From an uncultured Actinomycetota bacterium (GTDB lineage: Bacteria; Actinomycetota; Actinomycetes; Streptosporangiales; Streptosporangiaceae), in contig CAWJGE010000010.1 in assembly GCA_963842265.1 (NCBI GenBank), positions 114,673-178,672 on the forward strand: a stretch of DNA of 64,000 nt, written 5' to 3'. The notes below the pieces were generated by a model that saw only the letters and a program-made list of their open reading frames with translations, was not told the DNA's origin and did not search any database. The translations under genes were made by a program, and so were the position numbers. Shown here piece by piece: positions 46,167 to 62,387 of the stretch (positions are counted from its first letter, which is position 1; each line of letters begins with the position of its first letter).

Positions 46167-46681
46167 CCGCCGCTGCGGCGGCGGCCGAGCTCGCGCCGAC
46201 CCGAGCCCGCATGCTGCGCGACGCCGCGGACCAGGTGACCCGGATTCTCGCGGACGCGCGGCGCGAGGCGGACGGGATCGCCGCGCAGGCGCGCCAGGAA
46301 GCGGAGCGGAGCGTGTTGCTGGCGCGGGCGGCGGGCCTTGCGCAGGCTGCGGCGCAGGCCGCAGCAGTGCGGCGGCGGGCCCGAAGTGATGCCCGGTCGG
46401 CGCTGCTTGGTGCCCAGCGCGAGGCCTACGATGAGCTGCGCGCCCGGATTCGCGTGGCCGTGGACGGGCTGCGGAGCGAGCCCGGATATGACCGGCTGCT
46501 CGAGGCGCTCGCCCGGATGGCCCAGGTGGAGGCGGGCCCCGACGCGACGGTTAGCGCGTCTGCCGACGGCGGTGTCGTGGCCCGCTCTCCCGGCGTGCTC
46601 GTGGAATGCTCGCTGGCCCGGCTCGCCGACCTGGCCGTCGAGGCGCTGGACGGGGAGGTGCAGGAGCTGTGGGCGCCATGA
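46163..46681 (+). CDS. atpE: A/V-type ATPase subunit E
   Basis: 172 aa. N-terminal coiled coil (ILADARREADGIAAQARQEAER) plus a globular C-domain. Confidence 0.7.
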   Translation: MTAAAAAAELAPTRARMLRDAADQVTRILADARREADGIAAQARQEAERSVLLARAAGLAQAAAQAAAVRRRARSDARSALLGAQREAYDELRARIRVAVDGLRSEPGYDRLLEALARMAQVEAGPDATVSASADGGVVARSPGVLVECSLARLADLAVEALDGEVQELWAP

Positions 46682-48441
46682 CTGCGGCGGCGCGAGTGGC
46701 CCGGGTGAACGGGCCGCTCGTCGAGGTAGAAGGGCTGGCGGGGGCGGCGATGTCCAACCTCGTCGAGCTCGGTGAGCGCGGGCTGCCGGGCGAGGTGGTC
46801 GCCATCCGCGGCGACGTTACGACGATCCAGGCCTACGAGTACACCGGGGGCCTAGCGCCCGGCGAACCGGCCCGGTCCCTGGGCGTGCCGCTGTCGGCCC
46901 AGCTCGGCCCGCACCTGCTCGGCGGCATCTTCGATGGCCTGCTGCGGCCGCTGACCGGGGCTCCCACCTGGCTGGAGCCTGGGCGGTCGCGAGAGTCCGC
47001 GACGGGCCGGGAGTTCGGGTTCACCCCCGAGGTGGCTGAGGGCGCGGCTGTCGGCGACGGCACCTGCCTGGGATCGGTGGCCATGGCCGGCGGGATCGGG
47101 TACCGGGTCCTCGCGCCGCCCGGGCTAAGCGGGACCGTCGAGGAGGCGCGGCCGGCCGGGCTGGTCGACGGCGACTCGGTGATCGCGGTCGTGTCCGGCG
47201 TCGCCGTGCGGCTGGTCTCCGACTGGCCGATCCGGCGGCCGAGGCCGTACCAGCGGCGGCTAGAGGGAGGCGACGGGTCCGCGCCGCTGCTCACCGGGCA
47301 GCGCGTGGTCGACGTGCTGTTCCCGGTCACCAGGGGCGGCGCCGCCGCGGTGCCCGGCGGGTTCGGAACCGGCAAGACCGTGCTGCTGCAGCAGATCGCG
47401 AAGTGGGGTGACGCGGACGTGATCGTCTACGTCGGCTGCGGGGAGCGTGGCAACGAGCTGGCCGACCTGCTGGCTGAGCTGACCGAGCTGACCGATCCGC
47501 GGTCCGGCGGGCGCCTGGCCGAGCGGACCGTGGTCATCGCCAACACCTCCAACATGCCGATGATGGCGCGCGAGGCCAGCATCTACAGCGGGGCCACGGT
47601 CGCCGAGTACTTCCGCGACATGGGGCTGGACACCGTCGTGGTGGCCGACTCGACGTCGCGGTGGGCGGAGGCGCTGCGCGAGTTCGCCTCGCGCAGCGGC
47701 GAGCTTCCCGCCGAGGAGGGCTACCCGGCCAGCCTCTCCTCGGCCCTGGCCGCGTTCTACGAGCGCGCCGGCCGGGTGATCACCAGCGAGGGCCGCGAGG
47801 GCTCGGTCACCATCATCGGCGCGGTCTCCCCGGCGGGCGGCGACCTGACCGAGCCGGTCACCACGTACACGCAGCGGTTCGTCCGGTGCCTGTGGTCCCT
47901 GGACCGCGACCTCGCCTACGCCCGGCACTACCCGGCAGTCTCCTGGTCCGGATCGTTCTCTCGCGACGTCGACGCCGTCGCCACCTGGCATGCCGGCAGC
48001 GGCGATCCCGCCTGGGCGGACCGCAGGGGCCGGCTGGCCGCCGTGCTCGCGGACTCCGACCGGCTCAGCTCGCTAGCCGAACTGCTGGGCGTCACCGCCC
48101 TGCCGCCCGCCGAGCGGGTCACCATCCTGGCCGGACGGTTGATCCGGGAAGGCGTCCTGCAGCAGAACGCGCTGAGCCCGGTAGACGCATACTGCGACGC
48201 CGCCCGGGCGGCCGCACTGGCGAGCGCGGTGCTGGCGGTGGCGGACCGCTGCCAGGCCCTGGTCGACCGGGGTGTTCCCGCCGCCGTGATCGAGGAGGAG
48301 GACTTCTCCCCGGTCCTGCGCGCCCGGGAGGACGCCGCCACGGCGGACGCGGTCGCCGAGTGTGAGCACGCTATGCTCGCCCGGCTCGATGACCTGGGCC
48401 GCCAGGAGGAGCGGACACGCGAGGAAGGCGGGGTCGGGTGA
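46678..48441 (+). CDS. atpA: A/V-type ATPase catalytic subunit A
   Basis: VNGPLVEVEGL..., Walker A PGGFGTGKTVLLQQIAKW, GCGERGNE. The ATG at 46678 overlaps the upstream stop. Confidence 0.9.
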   Translation: MTAAARVARVNGPLVEVEGLAGAAMSNLVELGERGLPGEVVAIRGDVTTIQAYEYTGGLAPGEPARSLGVPLSAQLGPHLLGGIFDGLLRPLTGAPTWLEPGRSRESATGREFGFTPEVAEGAAVGDGTCLGSVAMAGGIGYRVLAPPGLSGTVEEARPAGLVDGDSVIAVVSGVAVRLVSDWPIRRPRPYQRRLEGGDGSAPLLTGQRVVDVLFPVTRGGAAAVPGGFGTGKTVLLQQIAKWGDADVIVYVGCGERGNELADLLAELTELTDPRSGGRLAERTVVIANTSNMPMMAREASIYSGATVAEYFRDMGLDTVVVADSTSRWAEALREFASRSGELPAEEGYPASLSSALAAFYERAGRVITSEGREGSVTIIGAVSPAGGDLTEPVTTYTQRFVRCLWSLDRDLAYARHYPAVSWSGSFSRDVDAVATWHAGSGDPAWADRRGRLAAVLADSDRLSSLAELLGVTALPPAERVTILAGRLIREGVLQQNALSPVDAYCDAARAAALASAVLAVADRCQALVDRGVPAAVIEEEDFSPVLRAREDAATADAVAECEHAMLARLDDLGRQEERTREEGGVG

Positions 48442-49886
48442 CCATCTGGGCACGGCGCGAGTACACTGACGTCGCGGAGCTGCGCGGGCCGCTGCTTGTC
48501 GTGCGCGGCGTGACCGATGTGGGCTGGGACGAGTTCGCCACGATTCGGACGGCATCGGGCGCGTTGCGGCACGGGCTGGTGCTGGAGGCCGACCGGGATC
48601 TCGCCGTTGTACAGGTGTTCGAGGGCACTGAGGGCCTGGCGCCGGCTACCGCCCGGGTCGCGTTCAGCGGGAGCCCGCTGCGGATTCCGGTCGGTGCGGG
48701 GTGGCTCGGCCGGGTGTGCAGCGGGCGAGGCGAGCCGGTGGACGGCGGGCCGCCGGTCATGGGCGAGGTCACCATGCCGGTGACCGGGACGCCGCTGAAC
48801 CCGGTGCTCCGCGAGCCGCCGGCCGAGCCGGTGCTGACCGGGATCTCGGTCATCGACGCCCTGACGACCCTGGTGCGCGGCCAGAAGCTGCCGCTGTTCT
48901 CGGTGGCGGGCCTGCCCCACCTTGAGCTGGCGGCACAGCTGGCCGCGCAGGCGTCGGCGGGCGGGGAGCCGTTCAGCGTGGTGTTCGCGGCCATGGGACT
49001 CACCCACGCCGATGCCGCCGCGGTCCGCGCCATCCTGGAGGAACGATCGATGGCGGGGGACCTCGCGCTGCTGCTCAACCTCGCCGACGCTCCGGTGATC
49101 GAGCGGATCCTGACGCCGCGGATCGCGCTCACCGTGGCCGAGCACCTGGCCTTCACGCGCGGCCGGCACGTGCTCGTGGTCATGGCGGACATGACGAACT
49201 ACTGCGAGGCTCTCCGCGAGGTATCCGCCGCGCGCGGCGAGATCCCGGCCCGCCGGGCGTACCCAGGTTACCTCTACAGCGACCTGGCGTCCCTGTACGA
49301 ACGATGCGGGCGGATCCGCGGCGTGCCGGGCTCGGTGACGCTGGTCCCGGTCCTGACCATGCCAGCCGGGGACATCACCCACCCGGTCCCGGATCTCACT
49401 GGGTACATCACCGAGGGCCAGATCGTGCTGTCCGCGGATCTGCACGCACGCGGCATCTACCCGCCGGTCGACGCCCTGGCGTCGCTGTCCAGGCTGATGC
49501 GCCATGGTGCGGGCCCGGGCCGGACCAGGGATGACCACCTTGACGTGGCCGCGCAGTCCCTGGCCGCGCTCGCCGCCGCCCGGCGCGCCCGGGAGCTGGC
49601 GGAGCTGGTCGGGCCGGCCGCCCTCAGTGCGTCGGACCGGCGGTACCAGGATTTCGAGACGGCCTTCGAACGCGGCCTCATGCACCAGGGCCGCGACGAG
49701 AACCGCAGCCTGGAGGAGACCCTGAGCCGCGCCTGGCGGGCGCTGGCCGCGCTGCAGCGCCGCGAGCTGACGATGCTGCCCGCCGCGGCGCTGGACGCCT
49801 ACTACCCGGGCACCGCCGACCGTGCGACCGGCGGGCCCGCGGCCGCGCCGCTGCGGACCGGGCCGACGGGGACGGTGGCGCCGTGA
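48438..49886 (+). CDS. atpB: A/V-type ATPase subunit B
   Basis: EYTDVAELRGPLLVVRGV...RGQKLPLFS...AYPGYLYSDLASLYERCGR. Confidence 0.9.
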   Translation: MTIWARREYTDVAELRGPLLVVRGVTDVGWDEFATIRTASGALRHGLVLEADRDLAVVQVFEGTEGLAPATARVAFSGSPLRIPVGAGWLGRVCSGRGEPVDGGPPVMGEVTMPVTGTPLNPVLREPPAEPVLTGISVIDALTTLVRGQKLPLFSVAGLPHLELAAQLAAQASAGGEPFSVVFAAMGLTHADAAAVRAILEERSMAGDLALLLNLADAPVIERILTPRIALTVAEHLAFTRGRHVLVVMADMTNYCEALREVSAARGEIPARRAYPGYLYSDLASLYERCGRIRGVPGSVTLVPVLTMPAGDITHPVPDLTGYITEGQIVLSADLHARGIYPPVDALASLSRLMRHGAGPGRTRDDHLDVAAQSLAALAAARRARELAELVGPAALSASDRRYQDFETAFERGLMHQGRDENRSLEETLSRAWRALAALQRRELTMLPAAALDAYYPGTADRATGGPAAAPLRTGPTGTVAP

Positions 49887-50503
49887 GCCCGCGACGGCTC
49901 GCCGTGCCGCCGGGCCGGGCCGGCCTCTGGCTGACCAGGCGCCTGGCGGTCGCCAGACGCGGCGCCGACCTGCTCGACCGCAAGCTCCAGGTCCTTCAGC
50001 GCGAACTCGACCGGCAGCGCGGCTCGGCGGCACGTGCCGCCGCGGAGTGGGAGCGCCGCCAGGCCGACGCCGACGGCTGGTTGCTGCGGGCGGCGCTGCT
50101 CGGCGGCGAGCGGGCGATCAGGCTGGCCGCCGCCGGTACGTTCGCGGAGGTGACGATCTCCTATGCCGCCACCATGGGGGTGCGGTATCCGGCCGAGGCG
50201 ACCTGCGCCACCCCGCCGCCCGTCGGCAGGGATGGTCCCGCCCTCGCCGCGGCGCGTGAGGCGCACCGCGTCGCGCTCGCCGCAGCCATGCGGCATGCCG
50301 CGGCGGCCGAGGCGCTCCGGGTCCTCGAGGCCGAGACGGTCGTCACCAGGTACCGGCTCCGCGCGGTCAGGGACCGGTGGATTCCCCGCCTCGAGCAGGC
50401 GCTCGCCGAGGTGACGTTCGCCATAGAGGAGCTGGAACGGGCCGACGCGGCGCGGCTCCGCCTGGCCGAGACCGCCCGGCGTCGGCCGTCCGCGGCCGGA
50501 TGA
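49883..50503 (+). CDS. atpD: A/V-type ATPase central-stalk subunit D
   Basis: LARRGADLLDRKLQVLQRELDR... 206 aa, last gene of the operon. Confidence 0.8.
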   Translation: MSPRRLAVPPGRAGLWLTRRLAVARRGADLLDRKLQVLQRELDRQRGSAARAAAEWERRQADADGWLLRAALLGGERAIRLAAAGTFAEVTISYAATMGVRYPAEATCATPPPVGRDGPALAAAREAHRVALAAAMRHAAAAEALRVLEAETVVTRYRLRAVRDRWIPRLEQALAEVTFAIEELERADAARLRLAETARRRPSAAG

Positions 50504-50508
50504 CCATT

Positions 50509-50790
50509 TCACTCTGCGGCCTCGTGGCCGATGACCCGGTGAGCCAGCACGATGTCGCCGGACCAGCCGCAAGCCCCGCAGAAGCAGACGAAGACGCGGT
50601 CGCGGCCCGTCCAGTACTCAGTGGTCAGCCCGTGGCCGCCATCAGCCAGCGACAACGCCGCCGCGCACGCCGGGCAGTACCGGGGCGCGTCCCGCCGATG
50701 CCGTTCGGCATCAACCGGAAACCACCCCCGCCCGACGTCACCACCAACAGGAACCCAGCGCCAGCCGACCGCGGCCTTCCGGTTTTCGTT
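50509..50790 (-). repeat. Left copy of long direct repeat (degenerate copy of small Cys-rich ORF plus last codons of the Rieske oxygenase gene)
   Basis: My manual alignment to 62071-62387 gives 11 mismatches in the first ~248 nt, then a ~35-nt indel, then shared CCGCGGCCTTCCGGTTTTCGTT. Confidence 0.9.
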
Positions 50791-51126: not shown

Positions 51127-52767
51127 TCAAGACGTCTCGCCTGGTGCAGACTGAAGGCGGGCGGCTTGCTTGTCGAGGTTGCGGACCTGCGCCGACTCCG
51201 GCCCGTAGGCGGCGGCGAGCAGTGGCCGGACGGCTCGCAATTCCGCGATCGCTGACTCGGTCTCACCCGTGCTCGCCAGCAACTGGGCGATGACGAACCG
51301 GGATTCCATAACCTTGGCCGCCTCGTCCGCGTCCCGTGCCGCTAGCGGGACGGCGTTCATCACGTAGTAGCGAAGCTGAGGGAGTGCCTTGTCTGGCTTT
51401 CCGGCCTGCGCGTAGGCGTGCCCCGCCTGGTAGGCGCAGTCAAGTGCCCATGGATCAGCGGCTCCCAGGTGCTGCCGGTAGGCCGCTCCGGCCTGCTCGA
51501 AAAGCTGCGCGGCGCGACTGTACTGGCCGCCAATCAGCAGCGCGGCGGCCAGCGTGCGTCGCATCTGCAGTTCGAGGACGGAACCGGGGACGGCGCGGTC
51601 CAGTCCCGCTTCGAGCAGGTTAATCGCATCGGACGGGTGCTCGCCCTCAAGGAGTACCTGGACGTCAGCGCGCATCCGCGCGGCCGCCTCCTCGGTGAGC
51701 GGGCAGGTGGTCCCTGTACCGGGCCCGTCGTCGGCGGCCTTGCCGTCGGCAGGCACATGGAAAGGGTTACGGCCGGTCAGGCCGAGCAGTGGCTGCCGGA
51801 ACGGCCTTACCGGGTCCCGCCTTTCGTCACCTCCCGGCAACAGGCCATCCGCAACCGCGACGGTCCCAGCAGCGACCGGAAGCAGCGCCTGGTACACCGC
51901 CTCGGCGGCAGGCCGCGCGGCCGGGTCCTTGGCCAGCATCGCCGCCACCAGCGCGTCAAGCGCGGGCGGCGCCGAGGGCCGCGCCGCCGCGACGGAAGGC
52001 ACCGCGGATTCCCGGTGCGCGACCCGCAGCGGCAACCGCGACGACCCATGGAATGGCACGTCGCCGGTGAGCAGCTCAAACATCAGGCAGCCGAGCGAGT
52101 ACACATCCGATGCGGCAGTGACCAGCTGTCCGGCCCACTGTTCCGGCGACATGTAGGCGGGCGTGCCGACGGTACGGTCGACCTGGGTAAGCCTGGGCAG
52201 CGCCCCGGCGCCGCGCAGGATCGCGATGCCGAAGTCGAGCACCTTGACCAGGCCGCCGTCGGTCACCATGATGTTGGCCGCCTTGATGTCGCGGTGCACG
52301 ATGTCCACCCGGTGCACGTCGGCAAGAACCGCCGCGATCTGCGCGGCGATCGCCACCGCCCACGCGACGCTCGGCGTATCCGGACCCGAGAAAGACGCGC
52401 CGTCAAGCAGTGTCTCCAGCGTCGATCCGCGCAGTAGCTGCATGACGAGCCAGAGCTGCCGCGCCCCATCCGGCAGATCGTCCACGCCGGTGTCGTAGAC
52501 GGCGGGCACGCCAGCCAGCTCCAACCGCGCCGTTATCCGGATCTCGCGCAGGAACCGCTTCTGGTCCCGATCGAGCGCGTCGAGGATCTCCACCGCCTCC
52601 GGCGAGTCCGGCGACCCAGGCACATAGGGAGGCGGCCGGAGCAGCTTGACCGCGACCGGCCGGTCAAGCCGCTCGTCGTAGCCGAAGTGAACCTCGCTCA
52701 TGCCGCCGCGGCCGAGCAGCCCGTCGATCCGGTACCGCCCGGCGAGTCGGCGTTTCCCGTCTGTCAT
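51127..52767 (-). CDS. Hanks-type Ser/Thr protein kinase with C-terminal TPR-like domain, no TM segment
   Basis: GRGGMSEVH, VAVKLL, HRDIKAANIMV, DFGIA, GTPAYMSPEQ. C-terminal helical repeats (AYAQAGKPDKALPQLRYYV...). The start lies 14 nt after the hsdR stop. Confidence 0.9.
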   Translation of the reverse strand: MTDGKRRLAGRYRIDGLLGRGGMSEVHFGYDERLDRPVAVKLLRPPPYVPGSPDSPEAVEILDALDRDQKRFLREIRITARLELAGVPAVYDTGVDDLPDGARQLWLVMQLLRGSTLETLLDGASFSGPDTPSVAWAVAIAAQIAAVLADVHRVDIVHRDIKAANIMVTDGGLVKVLDFGIAILRGAGALPRLTQVDRTVGTPAYMSPEQWAGQLVTAASDVYSLGCLMFELLTGDVPFHGSSRLPLRVAHRESAVPSVAAARPSAPPALDALVAAMLAKDPAARPAAEAVYQALLPVAAGTVAVADGLLPGGDERRDPVRPFRQPLLGLTGRNPFHVPADGKAADDGPGTGTTCPLTEEAAARMRADVQVLLEGEHPSDAINLLEAGLDRAVPGSVLELQMRRTLAAALLIGGQYSRAAQLFEQAGAAYRQHLGAADPWALDCAYQAGHAYAQAGKPDKALPQLRYYVMNAVPLAARDADEAAKVMESRFVIAQLLASTGETESAIAELRAVRPLLAAAYGPESAQVRNLDKQAARLQSAPGETS

Positions 52768-52781
52768 CCGCCACCACCGCT

Positions 52782-55700
52782 CTACAGGCCATAACGTAAC
52801 GCGCCGGACCCGCCGGTCTCCCGTTCCATCTCGGCGCGTAGCCGCGCCAGTGCCTCCTCGCGCAACGGATCGGTGATGATCCGGTAAGCGCGACGCCGGG
52901 ACGCTTCCTTGACCGCCTTACGGAACTCGTCGTTGTCGAAGTACAGCTTCATGAACTCGGTGTTCCGTTCGGCGTTCTCTGCCACGATGTCGTCCAGCCG
53001 GTCGTCGGCCACCTGGCCGAACCGCGCCTCGTCGTTCATCAGTCCGACCTGCTGCATCTCGGTGTCCGACACCAGCCCGACCACCTGCTGGTACACGAGG
53101 ATCTCGTCCCCGGTGCTGAGGTCGAGCCCGAACCGCTCGTTCAGCTCCCTGATCACCTCCGCTAGGTGCTTGACCTCAGGCTCACGGAAGCCGCTCCCGT
53201 CGGCCGAGTGCCCGCGCACCACGCCATCCTCACCCGAGGAAGACAGCGACACGTTGTGTGCCCCGGTGAGTTCAAGCCGGAAGTGCGACAGGTCAGCATC
53301 ACCGATGTCCACCGACGTGGCGGGCCGCCCCGGCAGCCGCAGCAGCAGCACCCGCCCGTACTGGTACAGCCGCTCAAGCTCCTCGTCGCCCCAGGCGACG
53401 ATCTGCGCGATCAGCGCATATGCCCGCGTGTAGTCCCGCAGCGCCTTACGGAACTCCTCCCGCTGCTCGTCATCCTCCAGGGCAAGGAACCGGTCGATCG
53501 CCGGCCGCAGGTACCCATGCAGCCGCGCGTGCAGCGCCCGTTCGGCCACGTCCGGCAGCCGCCCTGGCCCTCCTTCCATCAGCACCCGGACGAACGCCTC
53601 CATCTCGGGCACGGCGAGTACCGCGTACGCCATTACCTCCCGCTGCTTGTCATACAGCAGGTTCGGGTCCTCAGGCGTCGCGATCGTCGTCTCGAACCAT
53701 GGCTTGAACGCTGCCTGAATGTCGTCGGCCGAGTTCACGAAGTCAAGCACCCGCACGTCATCCTGCGACTTGAGCGGGTGGATCCGGTTCAGCCGGGACA
53801 GCGTCTGCACCGCCGCGACCCCGGTCAGCGGCTTGTCCACGTACATCGCGCACAGCAGCGGCTGGTCGAACCCGGTCTGGTATTTCTCCGCCGCGACAAG
53901 CAGCCGGTACTCCCGCTTGCCGCTCGTCGCGGCGTGTGGGTCGTCGGCCCGCGTGTAGTCGAACATCTTCGGCAGCTGCCCCTCGGGAAACCCGTTGAGC
54001 TGCGCCTCGGTGACCGTGATCCCGGGCGTCGGCTCAAGCGACCCGGAGAACGCCACCAGCGTCCCGTAGCCGAGGGCGTCCGCGTACGTCTGCATCGCCT
54101 GGTACATGGCGAGCGCGTCCGCGCGGCCGCGCGTCACCACCATGGCCTTCGCCCGCCCGCCAAGCCGCCGCGCAACGTTGTCCCGGAAGTCATCGATGAT
54201 GAGCTTCGCCCGCTGGTCGACCGACGTGGGATGGCGCACCGCGAACTTGACCAGTTCCCGCTTCGCTTTCCGCTCGTCCACCTCTGGGTTCGCGGACAGC
54301 GACTCCTGCTGTTCGACGGCGAGGTTGCGCAGCCGCCACTTGAGGTCATAGGTGATGTAGTTGGCCAGGACGTCGAGGATGTACCCCTCCTCGATTGCCT
54401 GCCGCATCGAGTACACGTGGAACGGCACGTTCATGCCGGTCTCACCTGGCTTTTCGGGGTTCGGCCGTGCCGGGTCGAAGAGGCCGAACAGGTTCAGCGT
54501 CCGAGACGTCGGCGTCGCGGTGAACGCGAAGTACGACAGGTTCGGCTGCTTGCGCCGCGTCCGGCCCAGGTACTCGAGCGGCGTCTCGTCCGGCCGCGCC
54601 TCATTGTCCGCCCCGATCGCCTGCCGCAGCCGGGCCGCCGCGTCGCCGCCCTGGGAGGAGTGCGCCTCGTCGACGATGACGGCGTACCGCTTGCCGCCGA
54701 GCTCGGCGCCGGCGATCTTGCTCAGGACGTAGGGGAACTTCTGCAGCGTCGAGATGATGACCTTCGACGTCGAGTCCTCGAGCGCCGCGGCGAGCTGCGC
54801 GGAGTCCTCGTCTATCCGCATCACCACGCCCGGCGTGTGATCGAACTGGTAGATCGTCCGCTGCAGCTGCCGGTCGAGCACGGTCCGGTCGGTGATCACG
54901 ATGACCTTGTGGAACACCTGCTCGTTCGTGTCGGAGAACAGGGTGGACAGCCGGTGCGCGAGCCAGGCGATCGTATTGGACTTCCCCGACCCAGCCGAAT
55001 GCTCGACCAGGTAGTCCTGCCCCGCCCCGTGCTCCCGTGCGTCCGTGACCATCCGCTGCACCGCGTCCCACTGGTGGTAGCGCGGGAAGATCCGCTGCGC
55101 AGCATGCGGATTGTCCTTCGGGCCGGCCGTCTGCACATGCAGGTAGCGCTGCAGGATTTCCAGCCAGTTGTCCCGCTGCCAGATGTTCTCCCACAAATAA
55201 GAAACAGAATAATCATTCCGAACGGGTGCGGGGTTCCCCGCCCCGCCCGAATTCCCCGCCCCGGCGGACCCGACGTTAAACGGCAGGAACTCGGTATCGC
55301 CACCGCTCAACCGGGTCGTGATGAACGCCCGGTCCGGATCGACCGCGAAATGCACCAGCGTCCGCCTGGCGAAGTAGAGTTCATTTGGATCCCGCCGCCG
55401 GTACTGTGTGACCGCATCATCCGCGTCCTGCCCGGTCATCGGGTTCTTCAGCTCGACCGAAGCCACCGGCAGCCCGTTCACGAAGAACGCCAGGTCCACG
55501 GAATCGTTACGGTCCCGCGCCGAGAAATGCAGCTGCCGTTCCACCGACAGCACGTTCGCGTCGTACTCCTTGAGAGCATCGGCAGCCAGCGTATGCCCCG
55601 GCCGGAAATAGCACAGGTCCACCAGCACCCCGCGGTCCTTCACCCCATGCCGCAGCACATCCAGGACCCCCCGCGTGTCGACCTCGTTAGCGACCCGGAT

Positions 55701-55919
55701 CGCGAACGCCCGCATCGCGGTCGCCTGATCCCCGCCATGCAGCTCGATCAGCTTCTCGAACTTATTTATCTGCGTCTTCCCGACGAATTCCCACAACTCT
55801 GCAGTGGCAAGCCCAAGTTCCGTATCATAGGCTCGCGGTCCTCGTATCCACCCCCGCCGCAGCAACTCATACTCAACCCGCTCCTCAAACGCGAACTCGG
55901 TATGCACCCCCGTACTCAT
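52782..55919 (-). CDS. hsdR: Type I restriction enzyme R subunit (HsdR)
   Basis: N-terminal nuclease motif DLAFFVNGLPVASVELKNP. Helicase motifs HSAGSGKSNT and VDEAHSSQ. 1045 aa. Confidence 0.9.
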   Translation of the reverse strand: MSTGVHTEFAFEERVEYELLRRGWIRGPRAYDTELGLATAELWEFVGKTQINKFEKLIELHGGDQATAMRAFAIRVANEVDTRGVLDVLRHGVKDRGVLVDLCYFRPGHTLAADALKEYDANVLSVERQLHFSARDRNDSVDLAFFVNGLPVASVELKNPMTGQDADDAVTQYRRRDPNELYFARRTLVHFAVDPDRAFITTRLSGGDTEFLPFNVGSAGAGNSGGAGNPAPVRNDYSVSYLWENIWQRDNWLEILQRYLHVQTAGPKDNPHAAQRIFPRYHQWDAVQRMVTDAREHGAGQDYLVEHSAGSGKSNTIAWLAHRLSTLFSDTNEQVFHKVIVITDRTVLDRQLQRTIYQFDHTPGVVMRIDEDSAQLAAALEDSTSKVIISTLQKFPYVLSKIAGAELGGKRYAVIVDEAHSSQGGDAAARLRQAIGADNEARPDETPLEYLGRTRRKQPNLSYFAFTATPTSRTLNLFGLFDPARPNPEKPGETGMNVPFHVYSMRQAIEEGYILDVLANYITYDLKWRLRNLAVEQQESLSANPEVDERKAKRELVKFAVRHPTSVDQRAKLIIDDFRDNVARRLGGRAKAMVVTRGRADALAMYQAMQTYADALGYGTLVAFSGSLEPTPGITVTEAQLNGFPEGQLPKMFDYTRADDPHAATSGKREYRLLVAAEKYQTGFDQPLLCAMYVDKPLTGVAAVQTLSRLNRIHPLKSQDDVRVLDFVNSADDIQAAFKPWFETTIATPEDPNLLYDKQREVMAYAVLAVPEMEAFVRVLMEGGPGRLPDVAERALHARLHGYLRPAIDRFLALEDDEQREEFRKALRDYTRAYALIAQIVAWGDEELERLYQYGRVLLLRLPGRPATSVDIGDADLSHFRLELTGAHNVSLSSSGEDGVVRGHSADGSGFREPEVKHLAEVIRELNERFGLDLSTGDEILVYQQVVGLVSDTEMQQVGLMNDEARFGQVADDRLDDIVAENAERNTEFMKLYFDNDEFRKAVKEASRRRAYRIITDPLREEALARLRAEMERETGGSGALRYGL

Positions 55920-57168
55920 ACCGTGACCCCTCCCGTAACCGCCGCCGTGATGAGAGCCTGCCGCCGCTCAGTTGCAAGCAGCGAGAATCGTGCATCGATG
56001 TATCACGAAATTCCGTGAACTCTATTAGGCGATGCGTCGAGAGCTTGTCGTGCCTTGACCTGTTGATCTAGCGGCGGAACGGGAATCCTGAATAGATTTC
56101 AAAACGCTCGTTATTCAAGATCCTTATTCGACTGTACGTGCGGCCCGACGCCCGGATTTCTCTCGTATGCTGACGAAAAGCCGCCATAGGACGAACCTGC
56201 GGAATATCCGCGTGAATCGGACAGATACATGACTTGCTGTACAGCTGACGTGTCGTTCCGCGGTCGCCTCGTGGTCGAGCGTCGGCTACTTTTCCAAGCG
56301 ATTCGCCAATGCCCACAATCAAGATGCTTTCGGCGGGGAATCGCGGAACGCTGCGTCAAAGTCGATCCCTACTCACACTACTTATCGGCGCTGTTCAGGT
56401 CAAGACTTCCCCCAAGAGCCGCCGCGATGTACCACGGCATGTTGCCGGAGTCAGCTGGGCGCGAAGTATCGGTCTGTGGGAGTCGTAGCCGTGTCTGTAC
56501 AGAATTTATGATGCGGCGGAGGGTGCAATGGCTTCCACTCAGGCGTTTGCGATGTCGCCCAGCCTCGCTAGCGCGTCGAAGTCGCCTCAGCAACACCGTC
56601 GGTTGAACGCATGCCTGAAGATTATCTGCAGGCGGATCAAGCTTGCATCGATCCGGGCCGTCTCGGCGTCGAGGAAGTCGGCGATCCGTCGCTGCTCGTC
56701 AAGTGACGGAAGCGGCACTTCTATCGAGCGAAATGCGTCCCAGGAGATGTCGAACTGGTTAGGCGGCATGTACTTGCCAAGACGTTCGTACTCTCGTACC
56801 AGGTGCTTAGATCGCAGCAGGTGATGAACAAACGCGGGGTACGCACGGCTCCGATCGATTTCCATTACCCAGTACGCCGGGCTTGTGATTCCGCGAACCG
56901 AGGAGACGCCTACTGACCCATGCGGCTTGCCGAGGCGGTTCATGATCACATCGCCCTCACGGGCGATCTTGTATCCGGAGAGGTCTTCGCTTGCAGCCGG
57001 ACGTCCGTCATTGTCGTCACGCTGGCGGACGCCTTCGTGTAGCCCCACGCCTAGCAGAGGGAGGTCGATCTCCCCGAAGTGCTCAGTTCGATGCAGGAAT
57101 GCGCGGAGTGCTGTCTGCGTCCAGTGCGCCTTGTTGCCGTGGAACGCCACTGAGCCCTGGAGTGTCAC
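55916..57168 (-). pseudogene. hsdS: Type I specificity subunit (hsdS): first TRD and central conserved region intact, second half decayed
   Basis: GTG at 57166-57168. TRD1 ends ...IEVPLPSLDEQRRIADFLDAETARIDASLIRLQ. Beyond 56587, recognisable pieces (ALARLGDIANA, GNMPWYIAAAL, ILIVGIGESLGKVA, FRIPVPPLDQQ, ERRQALITAAVTGGVTV*) lie in three different frames with in-frame stops. The final TGA overlaps the hsdR ATG. Confidence 0.7.
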
Positions 57169-59163
57169 CCTGTCACCTCGCCAAGCAGCTTCTGGATCTG
57201 GCTTTCCAGGTTCGCGCAGTTCCGCGTCGATCTCGGCCATTGGCCGCGGCGGCGTGTAAACGTAGAAGTGACGCGTGAACGGGATCTCGTAGCCGATCTT
57301 GGTTTTGTCGTGGTCGATCCAGGCGTCAGGGACATGGGGGAGTACCTCGCGGCCGAAGTAGGCCTTCACGTCCTCGTCTAGAGGCACGTTCTCATAGTCG
57401 CGCAGGTCTGGATCCGGCAGGGGAGCACCCTTGGCCGTCTGCACCTCGCCGTCGAGGTCGGACACCGACACCGCCGCCCAGATGCCCTTCAGAACTGGGG
57501 GCGAGCTGGGCCATAGCGCTCCGCCCGCCTTAGCCGCCGCGAGCAGCCCAGCCTCGGCCTCCCGCTTCGTCCACCACACCGAGCCGAGGGCATTCCGGAA
57601 CGCCGTTATGAGCGCGTCCCGCCCATCCCATTTCGCTAGGGCCTTCGACGCTTTCAGGGCGGCGAGGGTGTCGTCGGTCAACTCGAACCGCTGCTTCAGT
57701 GGCCGCTCCACGGTGATCCGCTGGTAGCCGAAGTCCCGCGTCGAGAACACCTTCACTCGCCCGTGGTCCGGATGCTCCGGATCGGCGGCAACGGTCAGGG
57801 CTTCCCCGTACACCGTCGTGATGTGCTCGATCTGGTCGTCGCCGATCTGCTTGCGCTTGTCACCGAGGGACTTGCGCATCTTCTCCCATTGGTCGCGGGC
57901 GTCGAGCAGGACGACCTTGCCCGCCAGGGCCGGGTCCTTCCGGTTGGTGAGGATCCAGAAGTAGGTGGAGATCCCGGTGTTGTAGAAGAGCTGGTCCGGC
58001 AGCGCGACGATCCCTTCGAGCCAGTTGTTCTCCAGGATCCACTTACGGATGTTCGACTCGCCGGAGTCCGCCGCGCCGGTGAACAACGGCGACCCGTTGA
58101 AGACGATCGCGAGTCGGCACCCCTTGCCCTGGACCGGCTCCATCTTGGAGATCATGTGCTGCAGGAACAGGAACGACCCGTCGTTGATCCGTGGCAGCCC
58201 GGCCCCGAACCGCCCCGCGTAGCCGAGGGCGGCCTTCTCGTCTTCGACGTCCTGCTTGACGGTCTTCCACTCGACGCCGAACGGCGGGTTGGCCAGCATG
58301 TAGTCGAACTTCTTCTTCTGGTACCCGTCGTCGCTGAACGAGTTCCCGTAGAAGATCGAGCCGGGCTGGTCGCGCAGCAGCATCTCCGAGCCGCAGGTCG
58401 CCCACGACTGGGGGTTCAGTTCTTGCCCCCAGAGATAGACCCTTGCGTTTGGATTGAATGACTTGATCTTGTCTTCCGCAGCGGTCAGCATGCCTCCGGT
58501 GCCGCAAGCTGGGTCGAGGATGTTGATGACTTGGCCTTCGCCGCTGATCGTGTCCCGGTCCGGGGCGATCAGCAGGTTCACCATCAGGTGGATGACCTCG
58601 CGCGGCGTGAAGTGCTCACCGGCGGTGGCGTTCGCGTCCTCGTAGAACTTGCGGATCAGATGTTCGAAAACATAGCCCATGTCGTGCGTGGACAGCTTCT
58701 CTAGGTCCTTCATCCCGGCGAACTGACCGATAACGTCGTAGAGGATCTTCGACTCGGCCATCCGGGTGATCTGGTTGTCCAAGTCGAACCGCTCGATGAT
58801 CTTCCGCACGTTCTCCGAGAAGTCGGCGATGTAGTCCCGCAGGTTCTTCGCCACCTGCGGCGCGTCGGCTGCGATCGTCGAGAAGTCCTGCCTGGACGTG
58901 TTGTAGAAGGGCAGCTTCGCCGCGAGCTGCAGGGGGCGGTCCTTGTTCTTGATGCCCTGGCTGGTCAGCGCCGCGTCCCGGTCCCGGACCGCTTGCCGGG
59001 TCTTCGCCATCACCGCGTCGAGCCGCCGCAGGACGGTCAGCGGCAGGATCACCTCGCCGTACTCATGCCGCATGTAGTGACCACGAAGCTTGTCCGCCAC
59101 CGACCAGATGTCGGCCGCCATCCGCTGATGCGACGGACCCGAGGTTGTTGGTCCCGTTGTCAC
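57165..59163 (-). CDS. hsdM: Type I methyltransferase subunit (HsdM) with a 1-nt frameshift about 15 codons before its natural stop
   Basis: FTPREVIHLMVNLL, ILDPACGTGGML, LANPPFG. The track ORF 56587-59163 reads through into hsdS. In the alternative frame the tail is ...LESQIQKLLGEVTG* with a GTGA overlap onto hsdS. Confidence 0.85.
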
Positions 59164-61061
59164 TGACGCCGCCCCTTCATCTCGTGTCTGTCCTGCTCCT
59201 GCACCCGGCTCGCGGCCGGAAGTTCATACTCGGGCGCGACCGCGCCGGTGGTCAGCGCGTAGATCGTCTCCCCGATCACCTTCGCGCCGAGGTCTGACAA
59301 TGCGGCCAGTGCCTGCTCAATCTCGCTCAGGCGCCGGAACGCCTCGCCGTACCGCCGCTGCTCGGCGAGGGGCAGCCGGGGGATACGGCACCGGCGCAAG
59401 TCGTCCCGGTTGATTGCTCCGAGCGTATTGGCGACCGGCAGCGCGGCGACGTCGCTTCGCAGGAACAGCGCTACGAAGTACGGATCGAGCCGGGTGCCGT
59501 CGATCTCGACGACCTGCGCGATGCCGCTGACCTCTACGAACCGCTCGATCGCGTCCTCGTCGCTGGCCTTCTCGGCGGTCGCCACGACCGGCGGCCTGCC
59601 CTGGGTCCGCAGCAGCACGTCTCCCGCCTGGGGCGTGTCATCCCGCGCCCGGATCGTCAGCGCCCCCACGCGCTCAAGCTCCGCGAGGGTCACGCAAGCG
59701 TAGCGGCTCGTCGCCGTGGGCGCCGCGAACCGCGGCAGCCCGCGTCCCACCGCCGCGTATATCTCGGCGAGCCGCCCCGTCACTTGGACGAGGTCCGCGG
59801 CGGACGCCTGGCCTCGCCCCGCCAGATAGCGAGACGGCAGCAGGCAGGCGCCCTCATCGAGGAGATCGAGCCGCTCCACCGTGCGGGAAACAGCGGGATC
59901 GCCGCCATCGAACAGCTGCTGCCAGGCGCCGAACTCAAGCGGCACGTCAGCCGGGTCGCCGAGTCCGGAAAGGTCGATCATGCGCACCGGCGTACGGTCG
60001 GGCGCGCCGCCGGGGCGTCGCAGTACCCACAGGCAGATATCGGTGCCAGGCAGCGAACCCATGCCCTTCGGCAGCGCGATCACCGCGCGGAGCACGCCGG
60101 TTCGCACCAGCGCGGCCCGGATGTGCTCACCGGACGGCTGCACACAAGCCCGCTGTGACACTGCGGCGACCGCGACCCCGTGCGGCCGAAGGTGCGCGTA
60201 GCAGTGCTGCACCCAGGCCAGTTCGCTGTCACGCGTCGCCGGTATACCGAACTCCCAGCGCCGGTCCGTGGTCAGCTCCGCGGCTGGCCAGTCCGGCCGG
60301 TCGAACGGCGGTTCGCACACCACGGCAGCGGCCTTGCCCAGGTAAGCGCCGAGCTGGCTGTCGGTGAACGAGTCCCCGGCATGTACTTCATACGGTGCCC
60401 CGTGTGAGTTCCCCGACAGGTTGAATGCCGCGATCCGGGCCGCCTTCTCGTCGGTGTCCTGCCCGGCGAGCCGGATCCGCGCGCCGAACCGGTCTGCCAC
60501 CGCCATCAGGGCCACCGCTGCCCCGCACGCTGGATCGAGGACTACCGGCAGCTCCGGGTCGTCGTTCGCGTCACCGCGATATTGTCCGCCTCCGGACGGG
60601 ACCCTGTCCTGGTCATACGGGCGATCCGGCCAGGCGCTATCGTCACGAGCTGCCCGGTCCGGTGCGATCGACCGAGGAAGCAGCGCCGCCATTGCCCGAG
60701 CCAGCAGGTCACGGGGGAGCAGGTCGCTGATGGATCGCTCCGGCAGCCACTTCCTCGCCTCCGCGAACGTCATGTCGAAGGTCTTGCCGAAGCTCTTATC
60801 CATGGCGTCCGCGCCAGACGCGCCAACCCGGATCGTCCCGCCATCCGTACGCCCCGCCGTTGCGAGCTGATCCGCCTTTCCTGTCTCCTTCAGCCAGGTC
60901 AGGACCTCGGCCCGGTCGAAGGCCGGGCTGTTCGGCGATCCGCCTGCCGGCTTCGGAAACTCCGGATGCCGCTTCCGCCAGTTGGACACGGCAGCCCGCC
61001 CCACCCCGGCCATTCGTGCGATGGCCGCCGCAGTGATCAGCTCCCGCCCCTCGGCCTCCAT
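59160..61061 (-). CDS. HTH + N6-adenine-methylase-like + single TRD fusion protein (atypical EPPF catalytic motif)
   Basis: N-terminal ITAAAIARMAGVGRAAVSNWRKRHPEFP (MerR/excisionase-type HTH). VVLDPACGAAVAL (motif I). VVCEPPFDRPDW in place of NPPF/Y. C-terminal IPRLPLAEQRRYGEAFRRLSEIEQAL (HsdS-type conserved region). GTGA overlap with hsdM. Confidence 0.75.
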   Translation of the reverse strand: MEAEGRELITAAAIARMAGVGRAAVSNWRKRHPEFPKPAGGSPNSPAFDRAEVLTWLKETGKADQLATAGRTDGGTIRVGASGADAMDKSFGKTFDMTFAEARKWLPERSISDLLPRDLLARAMAALLPRSIAPDRAARDDSAWPDRPYDQDRVPSGGGQYRGDANDDPELPVVLDPACGAAVALMAVADRFGARIRLAGQDTDEKAARIAAFNLSGNSHGAPYEVHAGDSFTDSQLGAYLGKAAAVVCEPPFDRPDWPAAELTTDRRWEFGIPATRDSELAWVQHCYAHLRPHGVAVAAVSQRACVQPSGEHIRAALVRTGVLRAVIALPKGMGSLPGTDICLWVLRRPGGAPDRTPVRMIDLSGLGDPADVPLEFGAWQQLFDGGDPAVSRTVERLDLLDEGACLLPSRYLAGRGQASAADLVQVTGRLAEIYAAVGRGLPRFAAPTATSRYACVTLAELERVGALTIRARDDTPQAGDVLLRTQGRPPVVATAEKASDEDAIERFVEVSGIAQVVEIDGTRLDPYFVALFLRSDVAALPVANTLGAINRDDLRRCRIPRLPLAEQRRYGEAFRRLSEIEQALAALSDLGAKVIGETIYALTTGAVAPEYELPAASRVQEQDRHEMKGRRQ

Positions 61062-61086
61062 AGCTCCACCGTACTCACAACCTCAT

Positions 61087-61128
61087 GTTGTCGCAAACGC
61101 TTGTGAACAGTGGCGACAATGTTCACAA
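61087..61128. promoter_or_regulatory. Interleaved inverted repeats in the divergent intergenic region (TTGTCGC/GCGACAA and TTGTGAACA/TGTTCACAA)
   Basis: TTGTGAACA at 61101-61109 pairs with TGTTCACAA at 61120-61128. TTGTCGC at 61088-61094 pairs with GCGACAA at 61113-61119. Confidence 0.4.
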
Positions 61129-61274
61129 ATCTGTATTCTGAACTAAGGCCGGAGGTGGACTACGCCGGTCACTTCGCGAGCGCTCGCAATGTCGGCGGCT
61201 GACTATAGCTTCTCGGCTGCGAAGTGCGACCAAACCAGCTTGGCAGAAAGGTCGTCGTCGGTATGATAAGTGGT

Positions 61275-61508
61275 ATGACACGGCAGAAGATCGCGATTAC
61301 CCTGCCGGAGGAGCAGGTGGCCGCGGCGCGGCAGGCTGTCGCGGAGGGCCGGGCCGCTTCAGTCTCCGCCTTCATTTCGCAGGCACTTGCGCGACGCGAC
61401 GCGGATGAAGAGATGGCCGAGACGATCGCCGAGATCTACGCGGAGAGCGGCCAGCCGACCGAGGAAGACCGGCTATGGGCTCGCCGCGTGCTTGGCATGG
61501 AGCCATGA
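61275..61508 (+). CDS. Ribbon-helix-helix (CopG-like) antitoxin
   Basis: MTRQKIAITLPEEQVAAARQAVAEGRAASVSAFISQAL. The track ORF starts at 61224; I prefer the internal ATG. Confidence 0.7.
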   Translation: MTRQKIAITLPEEQVAAARQAVAEGRAASVSAFISQALARRDADEEMAETIAEIYAESGQPTEEDRLWARRVLGMEP

Positions 61509-61885
61509 CCGGTGCGACCCTCGACACCGGGGCGCTGATCGCGCTTGAGTCGGGCAGCACACGGATGGCGGTGCTGGTGGAGGAAGCTCTCGCCGGCCGC
61601 GCGGAGCTGGCCGTCCCGGCCGGGGTGCTGGCTCAGGCGTGGCGCGGCGGCGGACGTCAGGCTCGGATCGCTCGCCTGCTGCACGCGTCGAACACGTCGG
61701 TCGTCCCGCTGGACGCCAAGATGGCGCTTCGGGTGGGTGCCCGGTGCGCGGCCACTCGGACGGCGGACATAGTGGATGTGAGCGTGGCCATCTGCGCAAG
61801 CGACCGGGGACATCCCGTCATCACCAGCGACCCAGACGATATCGGCGCGATCGACCCGGCGCTGACGCTTGTCCGGCCGACATGA
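61505..61885 (+). CDS. vapC: PIN-domain toxin (VapC-like)
   Basis: ATGA overlap with the antitoxin stop. LDTGALIALE, ...DIVDVSVA..., ITSDPDD acidic residues. Confidence 0.75.
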   Translation: MTGATLDTGALIALESGSTRMAVLVEEALAGRAELAVPAGVLAQAWRGGGRQARIARLLHASNTSVVPLDAKMALRVGARCAATRTADIVDVSVAICASDRGHPVITSDPDDIGAIDPALTLVRPT

Positions 61886-62070: not shown

Positions 62071-62361
62071 TTACTCCGCGGCCTCGTGGCCGACGACGCG
62101 GGCAGCCAGCACGATGTCGCCGGACCAGCCGCAAGCCCCGCAGAAGCAGACGAAGACGCGGTCGCTGCCCGTCCAGTACTCGGTGGTCAGCCCGTGGCCG
62201 CCATCAGCCAGCGACAACGCCGCCGCGCACGCCGGGCAGTACCGGGGCGCGTCCCGGCGATGCCGCTCGGCATCAACCGGAAACCAGCCCCGCCCGACGT
62301 CACCACCAACAGGAACCCCACCACCAGCCGAAGCCCCCGGGCCAGCCGCGACCACCGTCAC
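62071..62361 (-). CDS. Small Cys-rich (CPAC...CFCGAC) zinc-ribbon-like protein, GTGA-coupled to the Rieske oxygenase gene
   Basis: VTVVAAGPG...RYCPACAAALSLADGGHGLTTEYWTGSDRVFVCFCGACGWSGDIVLAARVVGHEAAE. The GTG at 62359-62361 overlaps the oxygenase TGA. Confidence 0.55.
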   Translation of the reverse strand: MTVVAAGPGASAGGGVPVGGDVGRGWFPVDAERHRRDAPRYCPACAAALSLADGGHGLTTEYWTGSDRVFVCFCGACGWSGDIVLAARVVGHEAAE

Positions 62362-62387
62362 CCGGCCGCGGCCTTCCGGTTTTCGTT
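62071..62387 (-). repeat. Right copy of long direct repeat
   Basis: See 50509-50790. Confidence 0.9.

Follow-up and report, generated by a model that had tools for sequence, protein, structure and literature searches.

The stretch analysed here, 64,000 nt of DNA from an uncultured actinomycete of the Streptosporangiaceae (the window), carries on its minus strand a cassette in which the three genes of a type I restriction-modification (R-M) system are bracketed by two others. At one end lies a gene that we call gene 1, whose product joins a helix-turn-helix (HTH) to a methyltransferase (MTase)-like domain and a target recognition domain (TRD). At the other end lies a gene for a Ser/Thr kinase with a tetratricopeptide repeat (TPR) tail.

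Gene content and state of the window copy

What is encoded at this locus? All five genes lie on the minus strand. Gene 1 (59160-61061; an open reading frame, ORF, of 633 aa) is followed by hsdM, whose 858-aa ORF (56587-59163) extends beyond hsdM proper (57165-59163) into hsdS. Next come an hsdS remnant without a long ORF (55916-57168, delimited by three-frame translation and homology), an intact hsdR (52782-55919; 1045 aa) and an intact kinase-TPR gene (51127-52767; 546 aa). The first-pass annotation had read this as a five-gene minus-strand operon with overlapping or nearly abutting stops and starts. Its genes and junctions are borne out by the window sequence, including the overlaps GTGA at 59160-59163, GTGA at 57165-57168 and ATGA at 55916-55919, as well as the gap of 14 nt between the hsdR stop and the kinase ATG. 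The number five, however, does not describe the present copy, which has four long ORFs, a broken hsdS and a frameshifted hsdM. A gap of only 14 nt leaves no space for an intergenic kinase promoter, and the layout as a single transcription unit is upheld by these junctions together with the one conserved promoter and operator ahead of gene 1 (see below).

HsdM matches the PADLOC MTase_I profile PDLC03029 (7e-246) and the Pfam domains HsdM_N and N6_Mtase, and its motifs are canonical (DPACGTGG, NPPF). HsdR carries the Pfam domains HSDR_N, SWI2_SNF2, ResIII and one that is T1R_D3-like, and it matches PADLOC REase_I; its match to TIGR00348 (2e-52) stays under the curated cut-off. A PD-(D/E)xK-type D...ELK, the Walker A sequence GSGKS and a DEAH box are read from its translation, so that HsdR is intact with the PD-(D/E)xK nuclease and SF2 motor that type I R-M calls for.

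The kinase had been described as intact, complete in its Hanks motifs, free of a membrane anchor and TPR-tailed, all of which is confirmed by Pfam, hydrophobicity and an AlphaFold2 (AF2) model. Pfam places Pkinase at residues 12-293 and TPR_12 at 401-465; the motifs GRGGMSEV, VAVK, HRDIKAAN, DFG and SPE are all present; and no stretch qualifies as a membrane segment, the 19-mer of highest hydrophobicity falling within the kinase fold. In the model, the kinase domain (~12-300) is joined by a disordered linker (309-353) to a TPR solenoid of nine helices (359-540), which is predicted with confidence. The kinase domain is PknB-like (33-35% identity), and Foldseek on the model returned kinase domains only (PknB and similar), with nothing informative for the tail. 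An exact-sequence look-up of the window kinase gave no identical record. Between Lys41 of strand beta3 and Glu75 of helix alphaC lies an insert of 33 residues (42-74; ~52546-52644). It is highly conserved across the family, with P53, S55, P56, A58, E60, L62 and D63 invariant and E57 nearly so, and AF2 confidence is low across it. This insert may be a regulatory or docking element.

The damage to the present copy is concentrated in hsdM and hsdS. Near the end of hsdM, an extra A at 57211-57212 (GCGAACC, compared with GCGACC in the metagenome locus L007 and in a second relative, L168, in a DNA alignment) shifts the frame by +1, 45 nt ahead of the stop; tblastn places the frame change 15 codons before the end. 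Owing to this extra A, the usual HsdM end '...LESQIQKLLGEVTG*' is out of frame and the ORF enters TRD1 of hsdS. The insertion thereby yields an in-frame 858-aa HsdM-HsdS(TRD1) fusion, a layout resembling that of natural M+half-S fusions, among them the 7eew protein and, indeed, gene 1. Within hsdS, the part from 57168 to about 56640, which covers TRD1 and the beginning of the central conserved helix, is readable, and the last 16 codons (RRQALITAAVTGGVTV*), overlapping the hsdR ATG, are kept. TRD2 contains at least four frame changes in ~500 nt as well as stop codons, as seen by three-frame translation and by tblastn with the HsdS of intact relatives. It is nevertheless homologous to the intact TRD2 of three related loci (L126, L155 and L005), and tblastx against L126 and L155 follows it through frame hops 2-3-1-3-2. 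The window thus lacks the intact two-TRD HsdS of a type I system, a protein that is intact in seven relatives (L001, L002, L004, L005, L007, L170 and L171). GC content falls to 0.60-0.61 across hsdS and the 3' part of hsdM (55000-58000), compared with ~0.70 around it, which is consistent with a horizontally exchanged specificity region.

The remaining 6.6 kb of coding sequence shows zero frame disruptions. Measured against L007, dN/dS amounts to 0.29 for gene 1, 0.18 for hsdR and 0.22 for the kinase gene, and the range across all four intact genes is 0.15-0.29, which indicates that all four are under purifying selection. In L007 itself (94% identity) all five genes are intact. In L168 (98% kinase identity, same V-ATPase context), hsdM, hsdS and hsdR are each fragmented, with gene 1 and the kinase gene intact (L168 3389-9335). 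The window frameshifts are either real decay or consensus or assembly errors at a strain-variable gene of a metagenome assembly; for the L168 fragments, likewise, the choice is between a restriction arm that has decayed in parallel and indel errors of a long-read-style assembly. From the sequence, the restriction arm of the present copy is probably inactive, unless the frameshifts are assembly errors.

Recurrence of the cassette and its relatives

Full-length kinase homologues of 62-98% identity are numerous. Among six genome or metagenome-assembled genome loci found through such homologues (62-94% identity), five have the five-gene order on one strand, namely those of Microbispora sp. CA-135349, Streptomyces anthocyanicus, Streptomyces sp. 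846.5 and Actinomadura syzygii, and metagenome locus L007. The S. anthocyanicus copy lies in the 4374251-4395837 region of CP109571 and the Microbispora copy in the 2795143-2816759 region of CP192001, and both are intact. A second Actinomadura assembly (a duplicate) and the fragmented L168 stand outside this count. Typical sizes in these cassettes are ~590 aa for the gene 1 product, ~650 for HsdM, ~410 for HsdS, ~1050 for HsdR and ~530 for the kinase. The sixth locus, from Amycolatopsis mediterranei (L003), has a lone kinase near an AIPR gene.

A metagenome scan seeded with the TPR tail of the kinase alone gave 80 loci, and we took as informative the 37 contigs that extend at least 300 nt beyond the kinase start on its upstream side. 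In 31 of these 37, hsdR ends at most 500 nt upstream of the kinase gene on the same strand; two more hold degraded copies (deleted hsdR and kinase), and four are unlinked. Where at least 8.3 kb of upstream sequence was available, gene 1, hsdM and hsdR were all present in 10 of 11 contigs. Approached from the opposite end, three of three loci seeded independently by gene 1 homologues end with the kinase. From hsdR to the kinase gene the distance is 14 nt in the window; L007, L170 and L171 have an overlap or a gap of 3 nt, and the others have gaps of 67-110 nt. In a scan of genome collections by full kinase alignment, the conserved catalytic peptides VDIVHRDI and KVLDFGIA drew generic Hanks kinases, and among the matches listed at least two close family members and at least about eight sister-clade loci were useful. 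A lack of recurrent linkage between the kinase and R-M genes had been set beforehand as refuting the first-pass annotation; linkage to hsdR is what we find, in 31/37 contigs and with the five-gene order kept across genera.

Could the kinase gene nonetheless be a chance neighbour in a defence island, that is, an independent single-gene defence of the PD-T4-6 or Stk2 kind, or a housekeeping signalling kinase? Defence genes generally cluster in islands, lone family members exist, and PADLOC does assign PD-T4-6 profile matches to the kinase, the best at 2.7e-79. That match, however, covers profile positions 9-270 of 510, i.e. the kinase domain only, and the same domain matches PknB at 3e-71. More than 25 independent loci, moreover, with identities down to ~60%, keep the order, strand and spacing, and the linkage recurs in a sister clade whose kinases are just 33-38% identical. 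The distribution is also patchy and on mobile elements, unlike that of a housekeeping kinase. We therefore regard a chance association as highly improbable.

The neighbours of cassette loci include an integrase of an actinomycete integrative and conjugative element (AICE) with RepSA and FtsK, a TrwC relaxase, a type IV secretion system (T4SS), and KAP NTPase, CHAT and AIPR genes. No members of the kinase family were found in the plasmid, phage and IMG/VR collections, and there is accordingly no sign there of a plasmid- or phage-borne cassette. Together, these comparisons identify the window locus as one copy of a conserved, horizontally mobile cassette with fixed gene order and strand, which is widespread in soil actinomycetes.

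Within the sister clade, the kinase-TPR gene adjoins gene-1-like, hsdM and hsdR genes, with or without a pair encoding an AAA_21 ATPase and a DUF4276 protein. The Sphaerisporangium locus (L011) encodes gene 1, HsdM, the AAA ATPase, DUF4276, HsdR and the kinase; that of Thermopolyspora (L012) is the same without HsdS and HsdR; Plantactinospora (L013) has hsdR and the kinase gene; and Planotetraspora (L015) has gene 1 and, 1.4 kb downstream, the kinase gene, with no hsd gene. The AAA_21/AAA_15 and DUF4276 pair sits between hsdM and the kinase gene (L011 4713-6679; L012 7878-9784). By far its best PADLOC match is HEC-01A/B, its MAD3 match being weak. Conversely, plain hsdMSR operons without either bracket gene occur on Rhodococcus opacus pRho-VOC14-C342 and Gordonia pseudamarae p1, with HsdR proteins of 42-44% identity. 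Given these relatives, the bracket genes are an addition to a standard type I system: the middle three genes are ordinary type I R-M, and the two bracket genes travel together. Besides the lone kinase of L003, one of 62% identity in L008 is directly preceded by a RhuM-family gene (1.6e-102; L008 4401-5222). RhuM genes often lie inside type I R-M operons.

Such loci raise the possibility that gene 1 and the kinase form an autonomous, MADS- or Pgl-like two-gene module that prefers to insert around type I operons, the R-M genes being dispensable passengers or a co-selected first line without physical coupling. The bracket genes co-occur in every full cassette, and the pair is also found without hsdR and hsdS (L012) and without any hsd gene (L015), with which the lone kinases fit as well. 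Damage in the window and in L168 affects the R-M genes, the bracket genes being intact and under purifying selection, and the PADLOC assignments are PD-T4-6 or mad6 for the kinase and mad5 for the TRD of the L015 gene 1. Yet a mere insertion preference hardly explains the bracketing at two ends, the overlapping stops and starts and the single conserved promoter. The identities of all five genes, furthermore, drop in step between loci, and the matches to MADS components lie far under the curated cut-offs. On this balance an autonomous module appears to us quite unlikely.

As for the surroundings of the window copy, a direct repeat brackets the whole ~11.5-kb island formed by the cassette and a toxin-antitoxin (TA) pair. 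The left copy (50511-50790; ~280 nt) abuts V-ATPase genes, and the right copy (62073-62387) comes after a Rieske oxygenase gene, an arrangement also seen in L007. The two copies, 11.56 kb apart, share 246 nt at 96% and 36 nt at 89% identity, and both correspond to the 3' portion of a small ORF rich in Cys (CPAC...CFCGAC). Of the two, the right one seems to be the native 3' end, belonging to a small ORF downstream of the Rieske oxygenase gene. There is no integrase between the two repeats, and the island looks like an insertion that duplicated the end of its target gene. The VapBC-like TA pair (61224-61508 and 61475-61885, plus strand; a weak RHH_1 match and a PIN match at 6e-6) is divergent from the cassette promoter and takes the same position in L007 and L168. 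Many other loci have in its place a gene for a DUF6119/TIGR04141 'sporadically distributed protein' (~570 aa), which is absent from the window. This gene is divergent upstream of gene 1 and shares the operator-bearing intergenic region (L001 1-1494, L002 1-1248, L004 1-1468, L005 1-1431, L114, L134, L145, L155 and L171 9186-9920); it has no PADLOC match, and a literature search gave nothing relevant. On the other side, the island is adjoined by genes for the A, B and D subunits of a V/A-type ATPase (46606-50503, plus strand). In L168, the remainder of the V/A-type ATPase operon is followed by an IS605 OrfB/TnpB-like gene.

Gene 1 and its operator

The gene 1 protein comprises a winged HTH (~8-60), disordered linkers, an N6-MTase-like Rossmann domain (~173-400) with the motif IV sequence CEPPF at 249-253, and a single TRD followed by a long C-terminal helix (~440-605). 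Its N-terminal 60 residues are near-invariant across the family and form a winged helix-turn-helix in the AF2 model; the annotation by the Joint Genome Institute (JGI) calls this part AlpA-like. The rest of the model shows an N6-MTase domain, one TRD and the long helix. Profile searches agree on the methylase fold (Pfam N6_Mtase, 3.7e-22; PADLOC MTase_I PDLC03037, 1.2e-61) and add a weak match to Specificity_I (3e-4) and one to mad1 at the N-terminus (6e-4). With Foldseek, the top structure was 7eew_A, a fused M+half-S MTase from V. vulnificus, followed by PacII M1M2S and several HsdM structures. PDLC03037, a REBASE-derived PADLOC profile, matches the L012 homologue over its full length (3e-170), meaning that the gene 1 family has already been catalogued as a putative type I-like methylase.

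Is gene 1 an active methylase? The (D/N/S)PP(Y/F/W) sequence is the established catalytic loop of N6-MTases. Gene 1 does not have it: motif IV reads CEPP[F/L] in all 51 aligned clade members, with the Glu invariant and Leu in six of the 51. The neighbouring HsdM has NPPF, and in the sister clade L012 has NPPY and L015 VPPF. In motif I, DPAC is invariant and the glycine-rich loop that follows is variable (G/S/F/A); motifs II and III are kept (GQ[E/D] and G[D/N]S). The EPP[F/L] loop suggests that catalysis by gene 1 is reduced or lost, and gene 1 is probably not an ordinary methylase; in view of the kept motifs II and III, it may still bind SAM (S-adenosylmethionine). The first-pass annotation, which had seen an HTH-methylase-TRD protein here, was thus right about the architecture, as borne out by the AF2 model, the 7eew match, the weak TRD profile and an HsdS-like helix 'LPLAEQRRYG'; an ordinary methylase, by contrast, is spoken against by motif IV.

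Ahead of gene 1, the palindrome TGTGAAC-N12-GTTCACA (61102-61127, minus strand; read directly) starts 66 nt upstream of the ATG. Allowing up to one mismatch in each arm, 17 of 20 cassette loci have it in front of gene 1, and in 14 of these its start lies 64-68 nt ahead of the ATG. The three loci outside these 17 carry versions with two mismatches. At least three further matches occur elsewhere in the same loci (~350 kb in total). The palindrome abuts the -35-like TTGCGA (61091-61096) of a putative promoter (61068-61096, minus strand), from which a 17-nt spacer leads to a -10 element, TACGGT (61068-61073). Between the end of this putative -10 and the ATG at 61061 lie 6 nt, a distance that implies a leaderless mRNA. 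We read the promoter by comparing loci, a like layout, GTTCACA-N4-6-(C)TTGCC...TA(T/C)(G/A)GT, being found in L108, L145 and L002; a generic sigma-70 and terminator scan, uninformative in this high-GC organism, missed it. From this arrangement we infer that the operon is transcribed from the palindrome-adjacent promoter and that the gene 1 HTH would bind the palindrome.

Relation to known systems and possible function

How does the cassette relate to described defence systems? The first-pass annotation had been unable to assign the composition to a named system, and the profile searches agree: no PADLOC or NCBIfam profile of a known system claims it, and PADLOC would give type I RM plus PD-T4-6. 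The NCBIfam equivalog cut-offs are reached by none of the proteins (MAD6 113.7 vs 460 bits; MAD2, for HsdM, 50.9 vs 720; BREX_PglW 46.6 vs 990; no match for gene 1). We found no literature description of an R-M and kinase cassette, although coverage was incomplete and a published account could be missed; two actinomycete defence surveys make no mention of kinases. To standard type I R-M, the middle genes correspond in order, domains and motifs, with an HsdM of ~650 aa that matches PDLC03029; the cassette differs by the HTH-MTase-like-TRD and kinase-TPR proteins at its two ends, and by the damage to the present copy.

In composition, MADS comes closest, followed by Pgl/BREX-2. MADS was missing from the precedents named at first (PrrC, Stk2 and PglW), even though its Mad1 HTH, Mad2 MTase and Mad6 kinase make it the nearest parallel. 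The acronym reportedly stands for methylation-associated defence system, which is said to comprise mad1-8 and to have been described by Maestri and colleagues in 2024. NCBIfam names MAD2 as a DNA methyltransferase, MAD3 as an AAA ATPase and MAD6 as a protein kinase, and Mad4 is a DUF4276 protein (PMC12065111). The cassette shares with MADS an HTH (Mad1), an N6-adenine MTase (Mad2) and a Ser/Thr kinase (Mad6), to which the sister clade adds a Mad3-like AAA ATPase and DUF4276 (Mad4), and there are weak profile matches to mad1, mad2, mad3, mad5 (the TRD of the L015 gene 1) and mad6. In contrast to MADS, the cassette fuses HTH, MTase and TRD in one protein and has a full hsdMSR, the mad6 match spans the catalytic domain only, and equivalents of Mad3 and Mad4 are absent from the window cassette. 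PADLOC results for four window proteins contained no match to mad7 or mad8. With scores far under the curated cut-offs, we reject an identity with MADS.

In Pgl/BREX-2, a methylation-based defence of actinomycetes, a DNA methyltransferase goes together with a Ser/Thr kinase (PMC12707154). The cassette shares this idea of MTase plus kinase but has no PglZ- or PglY-like ORF, and its methylase-like protein is of the HsdM+half-HsdS type rather than PglX. A PglW score of 46.6 bits against the 990 required, together with the lack of PglZ and PglY, led us to reject this identity too.

Among single-gene kinase defences, Stk2 of Staphylococcus and PD-T4-6 of E. coli have a Hanks-type domain. They resemble the cassette kinase in using such a domain as a defence effector. 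They differ in that the cassette kinase family has a TPR tail and a beta3-alphaC insert of its own, and in that its gene is embedded in an operon rather than solitary. The PD-T4-6, mad6, MkoA and PknB-type matches are all confined to the catalytic domain; the PD-T4-6 profiles act here as generic Hanks-kinase detectors, and for the same confinement we do not assign the kinase to PD-T4-6. Gene 1, for its part, shares an MTase domain, one TRD and a long helix with the fused M+half-S MTases (V. vulnificus YJ016, PDB 7EEW; PacII M1M2S), from which it differs by its N-terminal winged HTH and by EPP[F/L] in place of the NPPF/Y motif IV.

A logical model for an effector guarded by R-M is EcoprrI, in which the anticodon nuclease PrrC is held latent in the type Ic complex (PMC3874165). 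There as here, the gene of an extra enzyme foreign to R-M lies inside a type I operon or closes it. PrrC, however, is an ABC-ATPase plus anticodon nuclease with no kinase and no homology to the present one, and in the cassette the link is one of genetic linkage and spacing.

What, then, might the cassette do? Our best explanation as a whole is an R-M cassette with an HTH-autoregulated gene 1 reader and a kinase as second-layer effector, which we put a little short of an even chance. The cassette would be transcribed as one unit from its conserved promoter, and the gene 1 HTH would bind the palindrome and thereby autoregulate the operon. HTH-bearing methylases and C proteins autoregulate other R-M systems. 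Gene 1 may dimerise like the fused M+half-S methylases and read a specific DNA site, reading or holding DNA rather than methylating it efficiently. HsdMSR would modify self DNA and cut unmodified invader DNA. The kinase would be made along with HsdR, and through its TPR solenoid it might engage the R-M complex and the gene 1 protein or, alternatively, a phage protein. Once restriction is bypassed or inhibited, the kinase would fire as a second layer and phosphorylate host or phage proteins, stopping the infection, in a PrrC-like guard logic with an effector of the Stk2, Mad6 or PglW type. In a more integrated form, the cassette would be an unnamed actinomycete defence in which a degenerate gene 1 reads sequence or methylation state and regulates the operon, and in which the kinase couples the state of the type I complex to a phosphorylation response, be it abortive infection or controlled restriction; this we consider possible without calling it probable. 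The first-pass annotation had proposed that the kinase is an abortive-infection effector or a regulator responding to the R-M state. Either could be the case, and the computed evidence does not separate the two.

The main rival to a second-layer effector is that kinase and gene 1 regulate the type I enzyme itself. The kinase would phosphorylate HsdR or HsdM and so delay or relieve restriction, for example upon conjugative entry into an unmethylated host or when host DNA is transiently unmodified, with gene 1 reading methylation status or operator DNA. Such a role would suit the tight, often translationally coupled position of the kinase gene right after hsdR, the presence of cassettes on integrative and conjugative elements, where control of establishment matters, and a gene 1 whose catalytic loop is non-canonical while its DNA-reading architecture and HTH are conserved. 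It would also have a counterpart in EcoKI, whose HsdR carries phosphorylated Thr, a modification proposed to act in localisation, disassembly or proteolysis (PMC3874165). On the other hand, some family members occur without any R-M genes (L003, L008 and L015), related hsdMSR operons manage without the bracket genes, and the kinases of Pgl and MADS are described as part of the defence itself. We therefore deem regulation of the type I enzyme unlikely, if still the strongest competitor.

Several observations also weigh against the second-layer effector with a gene 1 reader. Given their conserved motifs II and III, gene 1 proteins may still support catalysis with EPPF. Binding of the HTH to the palindrome is deduced solely from position and conservation. 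Lone family kinases (L003 near AIPR, L008 after the RhuM gene and the four unlinked metagenome contigs) mean that the kinase need not depend on an R-M complex. Finally, with the R-M genes damaged in the window and in L168 and gene 1 and the kinase intact, the bracket pair would, if the damage is real, work without restriction. On the whole, we take the cassette to be a methylation-based defence with an accessory kinase, which is well supported as a conserved unit and whose mechanism is the inferred part.

What does this mean for actinomycete defence? The literature searched offered no explanation of the role of the PglW and Mad6 kinases, and the cassette attaches a kinase to the best-understood methylation-based system, type I R-M. 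It is compact, highly conserved and easily recognised, and intact copies in culturable Streptomyces, Microbispora and Actinomadura make the kinase question directly testable. Current annotation tools would split it into 'type I RM' and 'PD-T4-6' and miss the unit. The large MTase-fold family with its invariant EPP[F/L] loop may consist of DNA readers rather than enzymes, and the conserved operator and promoter are usable for studying how such operons are controlled. If the integrated mechanism is true, the five-gene system would link classical R-M mechanistically with Pgl/BREX-2 and MADS, the methylation systems that contain a kinase.

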